NCBI GenBank assembly: GCA_018671895.1
Contig: JABHGV010000058.1
Coordinates: 12,759 to 76,758 of the forward strand
Length of the DNA: 64,000 bases
Direction: 5' to 3'
From: Rhodospirillaceae bacterium
GTDB taxonomy: Bacteria; Pseudomonadota; Alphaproteobacteria; Rhodospirillales; JABHCV01
Within the stretch, counting starts at the first letter, position 1; each line of letters starts with the position of its first letter. The notes beneath the pieces were generated by a model that saw only the letters and a list, made by a program, of their open reading frames with translations, had not been told where the DNA came from and did no database searches. This document shows positions 25,642 to 35,160 of the stretch, piece by piece. A program made the translations under genes and the position numbers.

Positions 25642-26322
25642 ATGAACACTCCTCGGACAAATAACGCCATCGGCCTCGAGACGGCTAAAATGCTGCTCGA
25701 TATCAAGGCCGTGAACTTCCGCCCCGAAGAGCCCTATATCCTGACATCCGGTTGGGCCAGTCCGGTCTATATCGACTGTCGCAAGGTGATTTCCTTTACC
25801 GAAGAACGCCGCCGCATCATGCAGCTGGCCGTCGAAATGCTCGATGACAAAATCGGTTTCGACAAGATCGATTATGTGGCCGGTGGCGAGACGGCGGGAA
25901 TTCCCTACGCCGCATGGATTGCCGAGGCCGCCTCGACGCCGATGCTCTATGTTCGCAAGAAACCGAAAGGCTTCGGGCGCAACGCCCAGATCGAAGGCGA
26001 CATGGCCGAAGGTGCGCGCGTCTTGTTGGTCGAAGATCTGGCTACCGACGGTGCCTCGAAAGTGACTTTCGTAAATGCGCTCAGAAATGCCGGGGCCGAG
26101 GTCAGTGATGCTTTCGTTGTGTTCTTTTACGGTGTTTTTTCCGGCGCCCTGGAAAATTTGCAAAAAGACGGCATCAACCTGCATTATTTAGCGACCTGGC
26201 ACGATGTTCTCGCCGCGGCCGAGGCCGGGAACTATTTTCCCTCTCAAGCCATTGAAGGCGTTAGAGAATTTCTAGCCGACCCGATCGCATGGTCGGTTAA
26301 CAACGGCGGCAAAGCTTCCTGA
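25642..26322 (+). CDS. pyrE: orotate phosphoribosyltransferase
   Basis: PRPP-binding motif VLLVEDLATDGAS, with SGWASPVYIDCR near the N-terminus. Confidence 0.9.
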   Translation: MNTPRTNNAIGLETAKMLLDIKAVNFRPEEPYILTSGWASPVYIDCRKVISFTEERRRIMQLAVEMLDDKIGFDKIDYVAGGETAGIPYAAWIAEAASTPMLYVRKKPKGFGRNAQIEGDMAEGARVLLVEDLATDGASKVTFVNALRNAGAEVSDAFVVFFYGVFSGALENLQKDGINLHYLATWHDVLAAAEAGNYFPSQAIEGVREFLADPIAWSVNNGGKAS

Positions 26323-27850
26323 AGAAAGACCGTAAACCTGTCGGTTTTTCTGACATTTCCGGGTCACTGGATTCTGCAATAAATGGCAGTTTTGCGGTAA
26401 TCCTGAAGCCTCCGTGCTCGGGAAAATCCATGAAAATCTCGCCGCCATGGGCTCGAATGGCCGTCCGTGCAACCGCCAGCCCCAACCCCACCCCTCCGGT
26501 CTCCCGACTGCGAGAATTTTCTATCCGGTAGAACGGCGCAAACACCTGTTCTTGCTCACTTTTTTGGATACCCGGGCCATCGTCCGTGACCATAATCCGC
26601 ACCACTGAATCATCTTGAACAAACGACACTTCGGCACGCCCCCCATATTGGCAGGCATTGTCGATCAGATTCTGAAAGGCCCTTTTCAGCGCTGTTGATC
26701 GCCCTCGGAAAATGAGCTTCTCCGGCCCAGAACAGATAGCATCCTTGCCGCCGTCAACGGCATCATCAACAAGGCTTTGCAACATCGCAGCAAGATCAAA
26801 ACGGGCCGTTGGTTCGTCAGCAGCCTCATCGCGCGCAAATGACAGGGTGGCCGCGATCATTTCTTCCATCTGGACAAGGTCGGCCATCATCTTGTGTTTC
26901 TGTTCTTCGTCTGCAATCAGTTCGGCCCGCAGTCGCATACGGGTAATCGGCGTTCGAAGATCATGCGAGATCGCAGCCAACATCTGCGTGCGGTCATGAA
27001 TGAAGCTGCGCAGCTTTCGCTGCATATCATTAAAGGCTATGGAGGCGCGGCGAACCTCGCGCGGTCCGTCTTCGGCAAGGGGTGGCGCATTGACGTCCCG
27101 TCCCAGCCTTTCGGCGGCCTTGGCGAACAACCCCAGCGGCCCGGCAGAACGATGAACGGCCCAGATCGAAAATATAATGACGGCAAACATCATCAAGGTG
27201 ATGCTTAACATTCCTTGCGACCACCAGAACGGCCTGAACCTTTCCGCTGGGGCCGCGACATTGAGCCAACTGTCATCTGACAGGCGCAAGGATGCTACCA
27301 ACACACGCCCTCCGTGCCATAGCCTGGACATACGACCGAACCGACTAATTTCATTTTCGCGTCCCATATGGTGGCGCATGGCGAACATGGGATCGTCATC
27401 ACTTTCCCAATGTTCATCACCGTCATGCCCCCGCCGGGAACGCCAATGTTCGGGGATGGTTTCGGGCATTGTCTGCTGGACCTGTCGAAAGGAGACGCGG
27501 ACACCATCTTCATCGACGTTATCGAGATAATGAACCAGCGACTTCCTGAGTGCCCGCAACCGCCAGCTTTTATCGTTTACTGGCGGCAGAATGCTGCGCT
27601 GTGTCCAGGTGAAGCTGAACCCCGGCCCCCACAACGTGCGAGCAACTTCTATTCGCCGATCCGGTGGCGTGTGCTCCAGGGTCTCGTAGGCAGCGACAAT
27701 TCTCTCGGACATCTGTCTGCCGCTGATCGTCGATAATTCCTCATCACGGGTGCCGGAATAAATGGCGAGGCTGATGAGGTGCGAGACAATCAGTCCGGCA
27801 AGCAGCACCAGAACGGTCCGACCAAAGATGGAATTCGGCAGAATTCTCAT
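26297..27850 (-). CDS. sensor histidine kinase (EnvZ-like) with a His/Asp-rich periplasmic loop
   Basis: Two TM segments, a HAMP domain, H-box AAISHDLRTPIT, N-box NLIDNACQY and G-box GGVGLGLAV. The periplasmic stretch reads EHWRSRRGHDGDEHWESDDDPMFAMRHHMG. Confidence 0.85.
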   Translation of the reverse strand: MRILPNSIFGRTVLVLLAGLIVSHLISLAIYSGTRDEELSTISGRQMSERIVAAYETLEHTPPDRRIEVARTLWGPGFSFTWTQRSILPPVNDKSWRLRALRKSLVHYLDNVDEDGVRVSFRQVQQTMPETIPEHWRSRRGHDGDEHWESDDDPMFAMRHHMGRENEISRFGRMSRLWHGGRVLVASLRLSDDSWLNVAAPAERFRPFWWSQGMLSITLMMFAVIIFSIWAVHRSAGPLGLFAKAAERLGRDVNAPPLAEDGPREVRRASIAFNDMQRKLRSFIHDRTQMLAAISHDLRTPITRMRLRAELIADEEQKHKMMADLVQMEEMIAATLSFARDEAADEPTARFDLAAMLQSLVDDAVDGGKDAICSGPEKLIFRGRSTALKRAFQNLIDNACQYGGRAEVSFVQDDSVVRIMVTDDGPGIQKSEQEQVFAPFYRIENSRSRETGGVGLGLAVARTAIRAHGGEIFMDFPEHGGFRITAKLPFIAESSDPEMSEKPTGLRSFFRKLCRRC

Positions 27851-28578
27851 GTCTCGACATCCGGCGTAAACATATAACCGCCGCTTCTGATAGTCTTGAT
27901 ATGAGACGGGTTCTTGGCATCGTCCTCGATCTTGCGGCGCAGGCGGCTGACCTGCACATCGATACTGCGATCAAAGGGCTGAGCTTCACGTCCTCGCGCC
28001 AGATCGAGCAACTGTTCTCGGCTCATAACCCTTCCGGGGTGCGTGACAAAGGCATACAGAAGCTCGAACTCGCCACCGCTGAGACTAACCAGAACACCAT
28101 CGGGTGAGGTCAGTTCGCGCTTGTTCGCATCCAGAGACCAACCAGCAAAGCGATATCCCGTACCGTCACTTCGATCACCGCCGCCGGGCTTGCCCTTGCC
28201 GCCAATTCCTTCAAAGCGGCGCAAGACGGCCTTGATCCGGGCCAACAGTTCGCGCGGATTAAACGGTTTCGCCAGATAATCATCGGCACCCATTTCAAGG
28301 CCAATGATGCGGTCGGTTTCCTCGCCCATGGCCGTCAACATGATGATCGGCATCTTGGATTCAGCCCGCAGGTTACGGCACAAGGTCAATCCGTCTTCGC
28401 CGGGCAGCATCAGATCGAGAACGATCAGATCGATATTCCAGTCAGCCAGTGCCTTTTTCATCTCGCGGCCATCGGCAACCGTCGTGGTGCGCAAACCATG
28501 TTTGTCGAGGAACCGCCCCAGCAAATCTCGGATCTCGCGGTCGTCATCAACGATTAAAATGTGAGGCGTCGTTTCCAT
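27847..28578 (-). CDS. OmpR-family response regulator
   Basis: METTPHILIVDDDREIRDLL, DLIVLDLMLPGEDG, and a winged-helix C-terminus (RLRRKIEDD...IKTIRSGGY). I chose the start at ATG 28578 rather than the ORF-track start at 28800. Confidence 0.9.
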   Translation of the reverse strand: METTPHILIVDDDREIRDLLGRFLDKHGLRTTTVADGREMKKALADWNIDLIVLDLMLPGEDGLTLCRNLRAESKMPIIMLTAMGEETDRIIGLEMGADDYLAKPFNPRELLARIKAVLRRFEGIGGKGKPGGGDRSDGTGYRFAGWSLDANKRELTSPDGVLVSLSGGEFELLYAFVTHPGRVMSREQLLDLARGREAQPFDRSIDVQVSRLRRKIEDDAKNPSHIKTIRSGGYMFTPDVET

Positions 28579-28624
28579 ATCGCCGACTATAGCGCCTTCG
28601 AAACAAACACACCCCCAAATCATG

Positions 28625-28667
28625 GTAACGGCGCGTAACAAACGGGGCCGCTGAAACATTTGGTTAC
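28625..28667. promoter_or_regulatory. GTAAC direct repeat at 10-bp phasing plus an inverted copy, in a divergent intergenic region
   Basis: GTAAC at 28625 and 28635, with GTTAC (its reverse complement) at 28663. The repeats lie between the OmpR-like gene and the Met/His-rich gene. Confidence 0.3.
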
Positions 28668-28757
28668 AAAAACACCCCGAGTCCGAAATACCACGGCAAC
28701 AAGTAGGTGTTTGAATGAACCCATCAAAACATTCAACCGAACCGATGGAGACGAACA

Positions 28758-29084
28758 ATGAAAAACAGAACTTTGACTTTAACGGCGGCGGCAACGGCAA
28801 TTGCGCTTGTCACTGCCTTCACCGCCTTTCCCGCAATGGCGCATAACCCCCAGGGCATGGGGAATCATGACATGAAAAGCCAAGGCATGGGTATGGGCAA
28901 AGGAATGATGGGAAAGCACAAGGGCAATATGGCTGAACATCGCGGCAAGGGCATGAAAGGCCAATGCGAAGACCAGGACAAAATGAGCGAATACCGCCAA
29001 GAACACAGAGATGAGCACAAAGGCGAGCACATGGGCAAGAACATGGACAAGCATAAGGGCAACGGCCGTCACAACGCCCGTTGA
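28758..29084 (+). CDS. periplasmic Met/His-rich small protein (possible metal-binding protein)
   Basis: Signal peptide ...FTAFPAMA, then HNPQGMGNHDMKSQGMGMGKGMMGKHKGNMAEH...HKGEHMGKNMDKHKG. Confidence 0.6.
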   Translation: MKNRTLTLTAAATAIALVTAFTAFPAMAHNPQGMGNHDMKSQGMGMGKGMMGKHKGNMAEHRGKGMKGQCEDQDKMSEYRQEHRDEHKGEHMGKNMDKHKGNGRHNAR

Positions 29085-31796: not shown

Positions 31797-32342
31797 ATGT
31801 TTGCCGATAACACCTTGACCCCTAAAGAAGCGGTGCGTCTGTGCGCCCTTGGCACAATGGCGCTTCGGCCCATGACCTATGCCGGGCTGGCCAATTCCAT
31901 CCGCCATTTCATCAGCCGCATCACCGGGCCGTCACTGGACGTTATGGGCGTTTCCATCGAATTGCTGATTTATGAAGGCCTGATTGAAGCCGTTAACGGT
32001 GAAGGTATGTCGGACGACGCCGAACTGGTGATTACCGACAAGGGCCGCGCCGAACTGACGTCATTGCTGAAAGCCAACGTGCGACCGGCTGCAACGGAAA
32101 TAAGTAAACTGGTGGTCGCCTTGAAGTTCCGTTTCCTGCATTTGCTAGAGTCCGCCGACAGAATCGATCAGGCCGAACTGTTGATTGAGATGACAGAAAA
32201 CGAGCTGGCACGGCTGGATGATTTGTGCGCACACCACACAAACAATGAGGGATACCTCGTCGTCTGGCTTCAACATGACATCGAATTGCTGGAATCGCGT
32301 CTGGACTGGCTGAAAGAATTCCAGGCGTCATTAGCGACTTAA
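31797..32342 (+). CDS. hypothetical protein, possibly a PadR-like winged-helix regulator
   Basis: The N-terminal ~90 aa loosely resemble PadR (LCALGTMALRPMTYAGL...LIYEGLIEAV...ITDKGRAEL). This is a weak call. Confidence 0.4.
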   Translation: MFADNTLTPKEAVRLCALGTMALRPMTYAGLANSIRHFISRITGPSLDVMGVSIELLIYEGLIEAVNGEGMSDDAELVITDKGRAELTSLLKANVRPAATEISKLVVALKFRFLHLLESADRIDQAELLIEMTENELARLDDLCAHHTNNEGYLVVWLQHDIELLESRLDWLKEFQASLAT

Positions 32343-32830
32343 CGGGTCAGCTTTTCAACCACTGCGGCCAAACCATTCAGAACTTCTGTTCCGGCGGCTC
32401 CGCCGTCGCCTTCCATACGCTGAGCGATAACGACTTTCATAGCGCTGACGTACAGGCCGATAACCTCGACGTCCACATCAGAAGCGGTTTCCTTATCCTC
32501 GATAAACCGACATAGATCGTTGCCCAGAATAGTCATCAGGTCGTAATTGAAACTGCCGCCCTGACCTTTCATGTCATGGGCGATGCCAAAGATGGTTTCC
32601 ATGCGTTCCTTGGCATTGTCCCTATCGCCGATCAGACCGTCATATGACTTCTGCAACTTGACCAGGTCTTCCTCGACCCATTCAAGGTAGTTGTCGGCCA
32701 TGCCGGCGATGACGGCTTCGGCTCGTTCAATCGCTTCAAGATCGACGGCACCGGGGCCACCCTTGCTAACTTTCGCGCTTAATGTGTTTGGCGGCTTGAT
32801 TACCTGTACGTCTTCGTCGCTCATCAGCAT
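32339..32830 (-). CDS. Hpt (histidine phosphotransfer) domain protein
   Basis: HDMKGQGGSFNY is a typical HxxKG Hpt motif. The start at ATG 32830 is preceded by TTAGGA. Confidence 0.7.
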   Translation of the reverse strand: MLMSDEDVQVIKPPNTLSAKVSKGGPGAVDLEAIERAEAVIAGMADNYLEWVEEDLVKLQKSYDGLIGDRDNAKERMETIFGIAHDMKGQGGSFNYDLMTILGNDLCRFIEDKETASDVDVEVIGLYVSAMKVVIAQRMEGDGGAAGTEVLNGLAAVVEKLTR

Positions 32831-32896
32831 TCCTAAATCTACGTTTAAAACCAAGCCTACCGGTGTGAAAAACACAGGGCAAGCTGCATCAATAAC

Positions 32897-33457
32897 TTAG
32901 CCGTTCAACAGGGCCTCGACCTCATCTTGAGACAGTTCAGCTTCTTCATCACCGCCCTCGGTCACGGCGGCTTCCTTTCGGCGCTCTCCGCCCATATAGG
33001 CTGGGTTATCACGGCGTCGCCTGTCGGGACCAAAATACAATCCTGCACGCACAAAAGGGCGCGGACGTTCAATGATAGAACGGACCCGGGAGTATAACCC
33101 CTTTGCCGAAATCGGCTTAGCCAGAAACTCACTGACACCGGCATCGCGGGCTTCTACGACGCGGTTCATTTCCGTGTGTCCCGTCAACATGATGATCGGC
33201 ACGAACGGATTGGGACTGTCCTTACCGGTGCGCACAAGCCGCGTAAAATCGAGACCGTCAAGGGGGTCCATATTCCAGTCACAAATGATGATATCAGCGG
33301 GAAAATGACGCAATTCCTTGAAAGCATCGGCACCGTCACCCGCGTCGATACAGTTCTTTACGCCCAAGGCATGCAAAATGCTCGTGACGAGTGCACGCAT
33401 GTGCTTGTTGTCATCGACAATCAAAAAGTTCAGTCGCTCAAGGTTGTACTCTGCCAT
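32897..33457 (-). CDS. single-domain CheY-like response regulator with an Arg-rich C-terminal tail (paralog 1)
   Basis: LIVDDN, IIICDWNMDPLDG, IIMLTG and LAKP, then RPFVRAGLYFGPDRRRRDNPAYMGGERRK. Confidence 0.85.
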   Translation of the reverse strand: MAEYNLERLNFLIVDDNKHMRALVTSILHALGVKNCIDAGDGADAFKELRHFPADIIICDWNMDPLDGLDFTRLVRTGKDSPNPFVPIIMLTGHTEMNRVVEARDAGVSEFLAKPISAKGLYSRVRSIIERPRPFVRAGLYFGPDRRRRDNPAYMGGERRKEAAVTEGGDEEAELSQDEVEALLNG

Positions 33458-33587
33458 ACGATAAAGAGACTCTCCCAGGCCTCACACTCAAGACCAACTA
33501 ACATGCTACAAATAGTGACATATCCTTAACAAATAGTCACACCTGCAAGGGACTTTATATGAAATAAAACACCCTGATGATGACAAG

Positions 33588-34109
33588 CTAACTTGCATCG
33601 CCATTGGGTGAAACCTCTTTGCCTCGCTTCACGCGGCGGTCTTCGCCATCGAATTCACCGTCCTTACGACGACGGTCAGGGCCGAAGAAATCTTCGCTCT
33701 TAATGAAGGGCCGATCATCCTCAAGGACTGAAACAATCCTTGACATCAATGACTTAGCGGAAATAGGCTTGCCCAGGAAGTCATTGACCCCGGCGTCACG
33801 GGCCTGCTTGGCAAGACTTTCTTCGGTGTAACCGGTGATCATTATGATCGGCAGGAATTTTGTGACTTCGACAGGCTCCGAGCGAATTCGACGCACACAT
33901 TCCAGTCCATCAACACCGTCCATTTTCCAGTCAACGATCGCTAGGTCGGCTTCAAAACTTGATAAAACCTCAAGCGCCTCTGCACCGTCGCGGGCTTCTT
34001 CAATATCTTCGAATCCCAGGGCCTGAAGAATGGTTCTGATGAGTGTACGGAAATGCAGATTGTCTTCGACAATCAGCACAGCAACCTGCTCCAGATCCAA
34101 ATCCGCCAT
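33588..34109 (-). CDS. single-domain CheY-like response regulator with an Arg-rich C-terminal tail (paralog 2)
   Basis: LIVEDN, LAIVDWKMDGVDG, IIMITG and LGKP, then RPFIKSEDFFGPDRRRKDGEFDGEDRR. Start chosen at MADLDLEQ. Confidence 0.85.
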   Translation of the reverse strand: MADLDLEQVAVLIVEDNLHFRTLIRTILQALGFEDIEEARDGAEALEVLSSFEADLAIVDWKMDGVDGLECVRRIRSEPVEVTKFLPIIMITGYTEESLAKQARDAGVNDFLGKPISAKSLMSRIVSVLEDDRPFIKSEDFFGPDRRRKDGEFDGEDRRVKRGKEVSPNGDAS

Positions 34110-34216
34110 AAGCCCTCCCCGGCCCAACACTCATTTCAATTGCCTGTTCGTGTTTTTAATTGTCAGCTGCAATTGAGTACCTGACTAATATACAGGTATA
34201 TTCACACCGTCCTCAA

Positions 34217-34642
34217 CTACAACAATCCCAGACCTTTCAGTTCAGCCGCCATTTCCGGTGGTAAACAGGCATCAACTTGGTCCGGCGAGCCATCCTCCAG
34301 GTCCCGTGGCGCGTCTTTGACATCCAGGTATCGCCATCTCTGAAAGGCCCTGAATTCCTTTAATTCAGTCCTGACCAGTTGCGGGTCCAGAACCAGCGCA
34401 CAAGACGGTTTGCCCTCGGAATTGACGCCGCGTTCAATGCCCAGCAATCGTTGGCGGACACGGATAAAACGCTTGATCACCCAATAGATGGAACCGCCCT
34501 TGAGAAGCTGGTCCGCTCGTTTCGGTGTGTTGCGGGTAATGTGTGCCAGAACGCCCTCGTTCTTCAGACGACTTTCCTGAATCCGGGCCAGATGCTCTAC
34601 ATCCTCGACACCAACCGAAAGCTTGATTATATGCCAGATCAT
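34217..34642 (-). CDS. DUF1489 family protein
   Basis: MIWHIIKLSVGVEDVEHL...GGSIYWVIK matches my memory of the DUF1489 N-terminus. An alternative GTG start at 34654 overlaps the stop of the upstream receiver gene. Confidence 0.6.
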   Translation of the reverse strand: MIWHIIKLSVGVEDVEHLARIQESRLKNEGVLAHITRNTPKRADQLLKGGSIYWVIKRFIRVRQRLLGIERGVNSEGKPSCALVLDPQLVRTELKEFRAFQRWRYLDVKDAPRDLEDGSPDQVDACLPPEMAAELKGLGLL

Positions 34643-34650
34643 ATGGGGTC

Positions 34651-35160
34651 TCACATGCCCTTTGAATAATCGTAGGCAATTTGGCGTTTATCCTCGCCCA
34701 TGAATTCGAGTTGTCGGCGACGCCTGTCGGGTCCGAAATAACTTTCGGTCCGAATGAACGGGCGTGGATTTTCAATGATCGAGCAAATTCTTTTGTACAG
34801 CAGCTTTGCCGATATGGGTTTCGCCAGAAACTCGTTAATACCCGCATCTCGGGCCTCGACAATTTTGTCCATCCCCAATTCACCGGAAACCATGATGATG
34901 GAAGCGAATGGATCGGTGCCATGCTCTCCTGACCGGATATTGCGCACCAGATCAATCCCGCCCATGGGCTCCATTAGGTTGTCGGTGAAGATGATATCTA
35001 TCTCATTGGTTTCCAGGGTTTTCAAGGCATGTTCTCCACTATGAGACTCCTTGATGTCACGTATACCAAGCGCCCTGAGGACTCGCTTGAGGATCAAAAG
35101 CATCGGTTCATAATCGTCAACGACCAGAACCTTCAGTTCGCTAATGTTGAAATCAGACAT
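34651..35160 (-). CDS. single-domain CheY-like response regulator with an Arg-rich C-terminal tail (paralog 3)
   Basis: LVVDDY, IIFTDNLMEPMGG, IIMVSG and LAKP, then RPFIRTESYFGPDRRRRQLEFMGEDKR. Start chosen at MSDFNISE. Confidence 0.85.
   Translation of the reverse strand: MSDFNISELKVLVVDDYEPMLLILKRVLRALGIRDIKESHSGEHALKTLETNEIDIIFTDNLMEPMGGIDLVRNIRSGEHGTDPFASIIMVSGELGMDKIVEARDAGINEFLAKPISAKLLYKRICSIIENPRPFIRTESYFGPDRRRRQLEFMGEDKRQIAYDYSKGM

Follow-up and report, generated by a model that had tools for sequence, protein, structure and literature searches.

Which signals enter a gene cluster that encodes CheY-like receivers with arginine-rich tails beside a histidine phosphotransfer (Hpt) protein, and what does such a cluster control? 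The question is raised by a 64,000-nucleotide stretch of DNA from a Rhodospirillaceae bacterium (contig JABHGV010000058.1, positions 12,759 to 76,758; hereafter the window), in which five co-directional genes on the minus strand (32339-35160) encode, in the list of open reading frames (ORFs), the receiver RR3, a DUF1489 protein, the receivers RR2 and RR1, and Hpt. We conclude, with moderate confidence, that this cluster is a conserved alphaproteobacterial module integrating a phosphorelay with cyclic diguanylate (c-di-GMP) signalling, in which a P1-type Hpt protein stands beside its cognate receivers of the Cle family. An earlier sequence-only reading of the window had reported a stand-alone Hpt with the motif HDMKGQGG and three CheY-like receivers with a common FGPDRRR tail and complete acceptor pockets (DD/ED, D, T/S, K), one of them coupled to a DUF1489 gene, with no kinase in the cluster. 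Each of these elements was recovered on the minus strand at the coordinates given then, as described below. Four further features, absent from that reading, also emerged: the separate and older clades of the receivers, the FliM-like end of RR1, a DUF1489-Hpt synteny spanning the order, and the loss of some flagellar and chemotaxis genes in this strain.

Cle-type receivers beside a P1-like Hpt

All three receivers matched Response_reg (PF00072; E = 9.5e-24 for RR1, 2.3e-27 for RR2 and 1.8e-20 for RR3) and contained no other domain. Their pairwise identity was 46-47%, and the closest solved relatives of RR1 in a PDB search were CheY of E. coli and Salmonella (E ~1e-21). Alignment showed complete acceptor pockets: D15, D16, D60, T92 and K114 in RR1, with R104 as the arginine of helix alpha4; E-D, D, T and K in RR2; and DD, D, S and K in RR3. 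Invariant across the three were A-R-D-A-G in alpha4, R133-P-F, F142-G-P-D-R-R-R and a second repeat [YF]xGx[DE][RK]R, giving the common tail RPF..(Y/F)FGPDRRR....(Y/F)xGx(D/E)(K/R)R. R104 was also invariant in 23 sequences of the orthologue group of RR1 (group A, see below), and nearly all Hpt-adjacent receivers across the class had an alpha4 arginine. From the CheY alignment, we infer that RR1 R104 is the equivalent of CleD R113.

The Cle family is defined by a CheY-type receiver, an alpha4 arginine and a tandem [YF]xGP[DE][RK]R tail (Nesper 2017, PMC5677366). The first repeat of this arginine-rich region (ARR) matched the family motif perfectly in all three receivers (YFGPDRR or FFGPDRR). 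When the RR1 tail alone was searched against the whole PDB, the sole match was the CleD peptide 6SFT, over 32 ungapped residues (E = 1.4e-4). The sequence-only reading had likened the tails to the ARR of the Caulobacter Cle proteins; the ungapped alignment, the tandem motif, the alpha4 arginine and the CheY-type receiver all bear this likeness out. By sequence, RR1, RR2 and RR3 are thus members of the Cle family. They share with Caulobacter Cle a single CheY-type receiver, the alpha4 arginine and a tandem C-terminal ARR, in alphaproteobacterial genes. Unlike Caulobacter Cle, all three have a complete acceptor pocket, one orthologue group ends in a FliM-like peptide, and the genes adjoin a dedicated Hpt gene; the word Hpt is absent from the eLife paper on Cle (PMC5677366).

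The Hpt protein is a separate ORF of 161 residues. It scored 21.6 bits with Pfam Hpt against a cut-off of 24.6, and many of its homologues carry a precomputed PF01627 assignment. The family comprised 467 homologues of ~161 residues, mostly named 'phosphorelay protein' or 'Hpt domain-containing protein'. H83, K86 and G87-G90 were invariant in 19 family members (motif HDxKGQGGSF). When the PDB was searched with the family profile, the best matches were CheA P1 domains (8C5V, 1I5N, 2LP4 and 2LD6; E = 6e-5), with HDMKGQGG aligned to HSIKGGAG of CheA P1. The protein thus resembles CheA P1 in the H-x-x-K-G motif of four-helix-bundle donors to CheY-type receivers. It differs from CheA in having no P2-P5 and in a conserved 40-residue N-terminal extension (PPNTLxxKVxxGGPGAVD), and no CheA is encoded anywhere in the genome. 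This extension (residues 1-40; window 32705-32824) precedes the part aligned to P1 and is strongly conserved, as I.PPNTL..KV..GGPGAVD. Separately encoded P1 domains have a precedent in split CheA of Rhodobacter sphaeroides (CheA3/CheA4), in which the liberated P1 is phosphorylated in trans.

The closest characterised relative of this protein is possibly HmrX of Caulobacter (CC_1220/CCNA_01278), a putative Hpt that is encoded on its own and belongs to the HmrABCX motile-to-sessile pathway (PMC11481889); orthology is suggested by its published description. The putative phospho-histidine of HmrX is H81, its closest structures are 8C5V, 2LD6 and 1I5N, and it influences motility, holdfast and c-di-GMP, with no downstream receiver known (PMC11481889). 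Both proteins are stand-alone and P1-like with the same PDB neighbours, the phospho-histidine being H83 here and H81 in HmrX, and HmrX is longer than 152 residues, as is the protein described here. HmrX has not been reported beside a cle gene, and its proposed input kinase HmrA is confined to Caulobacteraceae. Identification of HmrX by residue numbering was tried and rejected: two guessed genomes did not fit H81/A152, and a family member that does have H81/A152 (L022) proves nothing about the identity of HmrX.

Receiver-Hpt pairing across the Alphaproteobacteria

To place the cluster, we compared 80 related loci from species-representative genomes, most of them labelled as Rhodospirillales, Thalassospiraceae, Magnetovibrionaceae or Rhodospirillaceae. 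Cultivable relatives sharing the gene order of the cluster are Magnetovibrio blakemorei MV-1 (L036), Varunaivibrio sulfuroxidans (L001) and Telmatospirillum (L053). The syntenic gene order in these loci was SDR, DsbA, (RR), DUF1489, (RR)(RR), Hpt, followed by convergent AphA-like and hemA genes, with 0 to 3 ARR receivers directly upstream of Hpt. The whole neighbourhood is syntenic, so adjacency inside the order is weak evidence for a partnership. Because synteny alone is weak, we sampled the whole class. Of 301 alphaproteobacterial genomes from 248 genera, the Hpt profile matched in 119, from 97 genera, often with more than one match per genome; 60 Hpt loci were taken from diverse alphaproteobacterial families.

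A Cle-like receiver lay directly upstream of Hpt on the same strand in 41 of these 60 loci, and a further seven encoded a fused REC-ARR-Hpt protein. The ARR motif was present in 43 of the 48 adjacent or fused cases, and two loci (L126 and L135) contained tandem arrays of receiver-Hpt pairs. The fusions were found in L119, L120, L128, L129, L151, L153 and L162. In such a protein, the c-di-GMP-binding peptide would sit between the donor and acceptor domains. Both the acceptor aspartate and the Hpt histidine were kept in 74 of 93 pairs.

A second pair was found in the host genome at C66:5477-7276. Its receiver has T in place of the acceptor D, I in place of K, and a degenerate ARR (FFGPDRHRH..YRGELRR); its Hpt paralogue has Y in place of H (SYAMKGQGG). 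A DsbA-like gene lies upstream of this pair and, beyond it, a degenerate GGDEF ORF (match C66:7242-7697). Because receiver and Hpt are adjacent in many families, fused in some loci, and duplicated and retained as a pair, they probably work together. These findings support the earlier suggestion of a node joining a phosphorelay with a second messenger, given that the Cle-like receiver-Hpt pair is conserved across the class and is sometimes fused. The pairing was not found in the searched literature.

A tree built from the receiver domains alone, with tails removed, placed RR2 in a clade of second-position receivers (support 100/100) and RR3 in a clade with the pre-DUF1489 receivers of its nearest relatives (99/88), and grouped RR1 with receivers that adjoin Hpt in related genomes and evolve very slowly. 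By this tree, the three are old paralogues in separate clades common to related genomes and not a recent local expansion. Their tails differ by group: short in group B (RR2), with a Tyr/acid stretch in group C (RR3), and with a variable acidic/Gly linker and an [E]LSQDE[VI]xALLNG end in group A (RR1). Because the paralogues are old and have different tails, one Hpt probably feeds three differently tuned outputs. The Tyr/acid stretch, (E/D)Y(D/E)Y, directly follows the ARR in the pre-DUF1489 receivers of the window (34651-34683) and of L004, L005, L006, L017, L028, L066 and L067, and is absent in the other receiver groups. A fourth Cle-like paralogue in the host genome (C34:55020-55580) has a full ARR, an internal LSQDQINEAM and no adjoining Hpt. 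At C29:2454-3404, a 317-residue receiver has just one ARR half-motif (YIGPDRR), beyond which its C-terminus extends for ~170 residues.

Coordinates of the cluster features are given in Table 1. The intergenic spacers were 8-130 nt. Depending on the start codon used, the RR3 stop and the DUF1489 start overlap (GTGA) or are 8 nt apart. On one side the cluster is bordered by hemA and a gene for an AphA-like regulator, and on the other by a gene for a DsbA-like protein. A scan of the cluster for promoters and terminators gave no signal beyond shuffled expectation.

Table 1. Positions of the cluster genes and their motifs in the window
Feature	Position	Strand	Basis or remark
Hpt, 161 aa, CheA-P1-like, stand-alone, possibly HmrX family	32339..32824	-	ORF, ATG start, AGGA Shine-Dalgarno
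Putative phospho-accepting His motif of Hpt, H83-D-M-K-G-Q-G-G	32555..32578	-	family conservation, CheA P1 alignment
RR1, group-A Cle-type receiver: Rec + ARR + acidic/Gly linker + FliM-like C-terminal peptide	32897..33457	-	directly upstream of Hpt
RR1 arginine-rich region core YFGPDRRRRDNPAYMGGERR	32978..33037	-	CleD peptide 6SFT match
RR1 C-terminal peptide ELSQDEVEALLNG, FliM-N / CheZ-C docking-motif-like	32900..32938	-	pattern match, conservation
RR2, group-B Cle-type receiver: Rec + short ARR tail	33588..34109	-	Response_reg, tree
RR2 arginine-rich region core FFGPDRRRKDGEFDGEDRR	33633..33689	-	spacer one residue shorter than CleD's
DUF1489 protein, 141 aa from MIWH	34217..34642	-	PF07370; alternative GTG start 34654 overlaps RR3 stop
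RR3, group-C Cle-type receiver: Rec + ARR + Tyr/acid tail	34651..35160	-	upstream of DUF1489
RR3 arginine-rich region core YFGPDRRRRQLEFMGEDKR	34684..34740	-	receiver alignment

Tail binding and phosphotransfer

Several observations weigh against the module, the weakness of adjacency within a syntenic order among them; the others concern the tails, the pairing and the host strain. In the second ARR repeat (YMGGERR, FDGEDRR or FMGEDKR), G or E replaces P, unlike in Caulobacter Cle. The spacer of RR2 and RR3 is one residue shorter than in CleD, and no counterpart of CleD Asp172 is kept. Given these deviations, the affinity of the tails for c-di-GMP may be lower. The same deviations fit a reading in which the tails do not bind c-di-GMP at all and are basic tails with another role, such as nucleic-acid or membrane binding, their likeness to the ARR being superficial. 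We consider this very unlikely. The CleD peptide is, as noted, the sole PDB match of the tail, over 32 residues without a gap. RR1 keeps the equivalents of CleD residues whose substitution in an Ala scan weakens c-di-GMP binding (D154, R155, R156, R157, Y163, G165, R168 and R169), including all of those most sensitive to substitution (Y163, G165, R168, R169 and D154-R156); CleD R156 and R169 correspond to RR1 R147 and R160. RR1 departs from the CleD peptide at P166 (G), R167 (E, the family-consensus residue) and D172 (A). Orthologues in other genomes have a perfect tandem motif with Y.GPERR as the second repeat, and CleD peptides with single-residue spacer deletions still bind c-di-GMP at 0.3-1.9 μM (PMC7382256).

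The remaining points bear mainly on phosphotransfer. CleA and CleD of Caulobacter function without phosphorylation, and their acceptor residue is dispensable (PMC5677366). Roughly one in two Rhodospirillales Hpt genes stands without an adjoining receiver. Seven genomes without an Hpt-adjacent receiver carry 6-12 Cle-like receivers elsewhere, and the best RR1-like receivers in those seven genomes lie beside neither another Hpt nor DUF1489. Among the pairs that did not keep both residues, 11 had H without D, 7 had D without H and 1 had lost both. Correlated loss of D and H was considered as proof of phosphotransfer and rejected, the losses being generally uncorrelated. Because the losses are uncorrelated, some lineages probably signal by binding only. 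In addition, the host strain is without the FliM N-terminus and CheA (see below), and what we say on the binding of c-di-GMP, on phosphotransfer and on contact with FliM is prediction.

These observations could be explained if the receivers were phosphorylation-independent c-di-GMP effectors like CleA and CleD, with Hpt serving another pathway or acting as a binding partner only; adjacency would then reflect inherited synteny or a non-catalytic interaction. The broad synteny of the region, the receivers with N in place of D beside an intact Hpt, the Hpt proteins without His beside an intact receiver, and the fully dead pair kept at C66 in the host genome are all consistent with this explanation. 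We nevertheless judge it unlikely. The receivers of the window and the group-A orthologues keep D-D-D-T/S-K, and Hpt keeps H83; retention of both D and H in most pairs points the same way. Moreover, adjacency in 48 of 60 diverse loci, including the fusions, goes beyond what synteny alone would give. An integrated phosphorelay and c-di-GMP module remains our preferred interpretation of the cluster.

A FliM-like peptide, flagellar gene loss and the proposed mechanism

The C-terminus of RR1 reads LSQDEVEALLNG; FliM of relatives reads LNQDEIDSLLGF, and the CheZ homologue of the host genome ends in SQAEINDLLASFD. When all 20,325 six-frame ORFs of the genome were scanned with a strict LSQxEIDxLL-type pattern, only RR1 matched. 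In 26 of the 80 related loci, and in 4 class-wide loci, a receiver ends in this peptide; in the related loci it follows a linker that varies. It resembles the CheY-docking peptides at the N-terminus of FliM (LSQxEIDxLL) and the C-terminus of CheZ. Unlike in FliM and CheZ, it is borne by the CheY-like protein itself, behind the predicted c-di-GMP-binding region. In an AlphaFold 2 (AF2) model of RR1, the peptide was a helix (residues 177-185) with a predicted local distance difference test score (pLDDT) of only ~60, and the linker before it was disordered, at ~32. We found no description in the literature of a CheY-like protein carrying a FliM-like docking peptide.

Single-domain receivers of the CheY type can also act as phosphate sinks, as is established for Sinorhizobium CheY1. 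RR1, RR2 and RR3 might likewise be sinks or buffers for Hpt, with the real output regulator elsewhere and c-di-GMP setting the strength of the sink. They have no output domains and occur in several copies per Hpt, and PixH is a cited case of a single-domain receiver sink. However, group A is very strongly conserved over its whole surface, including the alpha4-beta5-alpha5 face, and carries a docking-type peptide, which suggests a protein target; for the Caulobacter Cle proteins such a target has been demonstrated in FliM at the flagellar switch (PMC5677366). We hold a role as sinks to be unlikely.

Compared with a family member, the host strain has a clean deletion of 3.7 kb at C31:12864-13330. 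It has removed the 5′ two-thirds of fliM with its docking motif, the whole of fliL, flgF and flgG, and the 5′ end of flgA, leaving a 76-residue FliMN_C remnant beside a shortened flgA; the intact counterpart of this stretch is at the relative locus L100:4550-9392. The deletion junction was identical in five independent assemblies, and a sixth with identical FlgH retained flgG and full-length flgA. Motility thus seems to have been lost recently, by a deletion that is polymorphic among assemblies. A non-flagellate host was considered when a Pfam search for FliM came back empty, and was rejected because FlhA, FliF, FliG, FliN and MotA were found. CheA (H-kinase_dim) was absent from the host genome (estimated 98.5% complete) and present in 12 of 16 compared genomes. 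The host keeps one orphan CheW (C6:58277-58792, beside hemB), and CheY, a CheZ homologue and a CheR-like gene on C31. Since the fliM deletion is recent, it says nothing about the normal target of the module and gives no ground for concluding that the target is non-flagellar; the FliM docking motif is present in relatives.

As the sequence-only reading had stated, no histidine kinase is encoded within the cluster. The nearest kinase ORF in the window (26297-27850) is ~4.5 kb away, is non-hybrid and adjoins a receiver-containing ORF (27847-28800). The host genome has ~45 kinase cores, four of which are hybrid kinases that contain no Hpt (on C39, C49, C5 and C80). Two related loci (L012:9158-12202 and L029:2206-5988) encode a hybrid kinase only one gene away from Hpt, with the AphA-like gene on one side of it and hemA on the other. 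In the host genome this kinase best matches C80:18070-21375, an Hpt-less kinase with the architecture HK-REC-REC (HK, histidine kinase; E = 1e-150), and on this thin evidence the C80 kinase is a candidate input to Hpt. The genome has 12 GGDEF matches, which indicates that c-di-GMP is available.

The DUF1489 protein matched PF07370 over all profile positions (1-138 of 138; 153.5 bits). Its gene adjoins Hpt, just upstream, in most of the 80 related loci, and the DUF1489-Hpt synteny spans the order. A different gene order, REC-Hpt-DUF1489, occurs in L122, L134 and L148, from at least two other families. We found no literature on DUF1489, and no PDB relative at the sequence level. Its AF2 model (pLDDT 89) is a predicted beta-barrel whose likeness to the PUA-like ASCH and YTH folds is weak (TM 0.45-0.49). 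ASCH and YTH folds usually read modified nucleic-acid bases and would be odd company for a phosphorelay. A functional link of DUF1489 to the receiver-Hpt module is doubtful.

From these results we propose the following mechanism. Phosphoryl groups from one or more of the four Hpt-less hybrid kinases would pass to H83 of Hpt, which would exchange them with the acceptor aspartates of the three receivers. Each arginine-rich tail would bind an intercalated c-di-GMP dimer in the manner of CleD, and each receiver would integrate its phosphorylation and second-messenger inputs on the alpha4-beta5-alpha5 face. By the precedent of Caulobacter Cle, the ancestral output would be the flagellar switch, through the FliM N-terminus. 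The tethered FliM-like peptide of RR1 would most likely fill the docking face of a receiver in cis or in trans, and may act as an autoinhibitory pseudo-target or as a decoy that is released or engaged according to the state of phosphorylation and c-di-GMP. A more far-reaching proposal, which we offer tentatively and regard as possible but not probable, is that dual-input Cle receivers are the missing partners of HmrX-type Hpt proteins throughout the class, and that group A carries a tethered mimic of the FliM N-terminus as a pseudo-target or as a decoy for phosphorylated CheY, gated by the ARR.

As proteins, the receivers add members to a family already known. New relative to the searched literature are their conserved partnership with Hpt and the C-terminal peptide that resembles FliM. 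The Cle proteins are a model for direct action of c-di-GMP on the flagellar motor and have been thought free of control by phosphorylation; a P1-like Hpt partner that is found across the class and is sometimes fused to the receiver argues otherwise for most of the family. The pairing also offers a candidate output for HmrX. The FliM-like peptide of RR1 suggests a concrete mechanism, pseudo-target autoinhibition or a decoy, and if this is true, the tethered mimic of the FliM N-terminus would be a previously undescribed way of gating a CheY-like protein.

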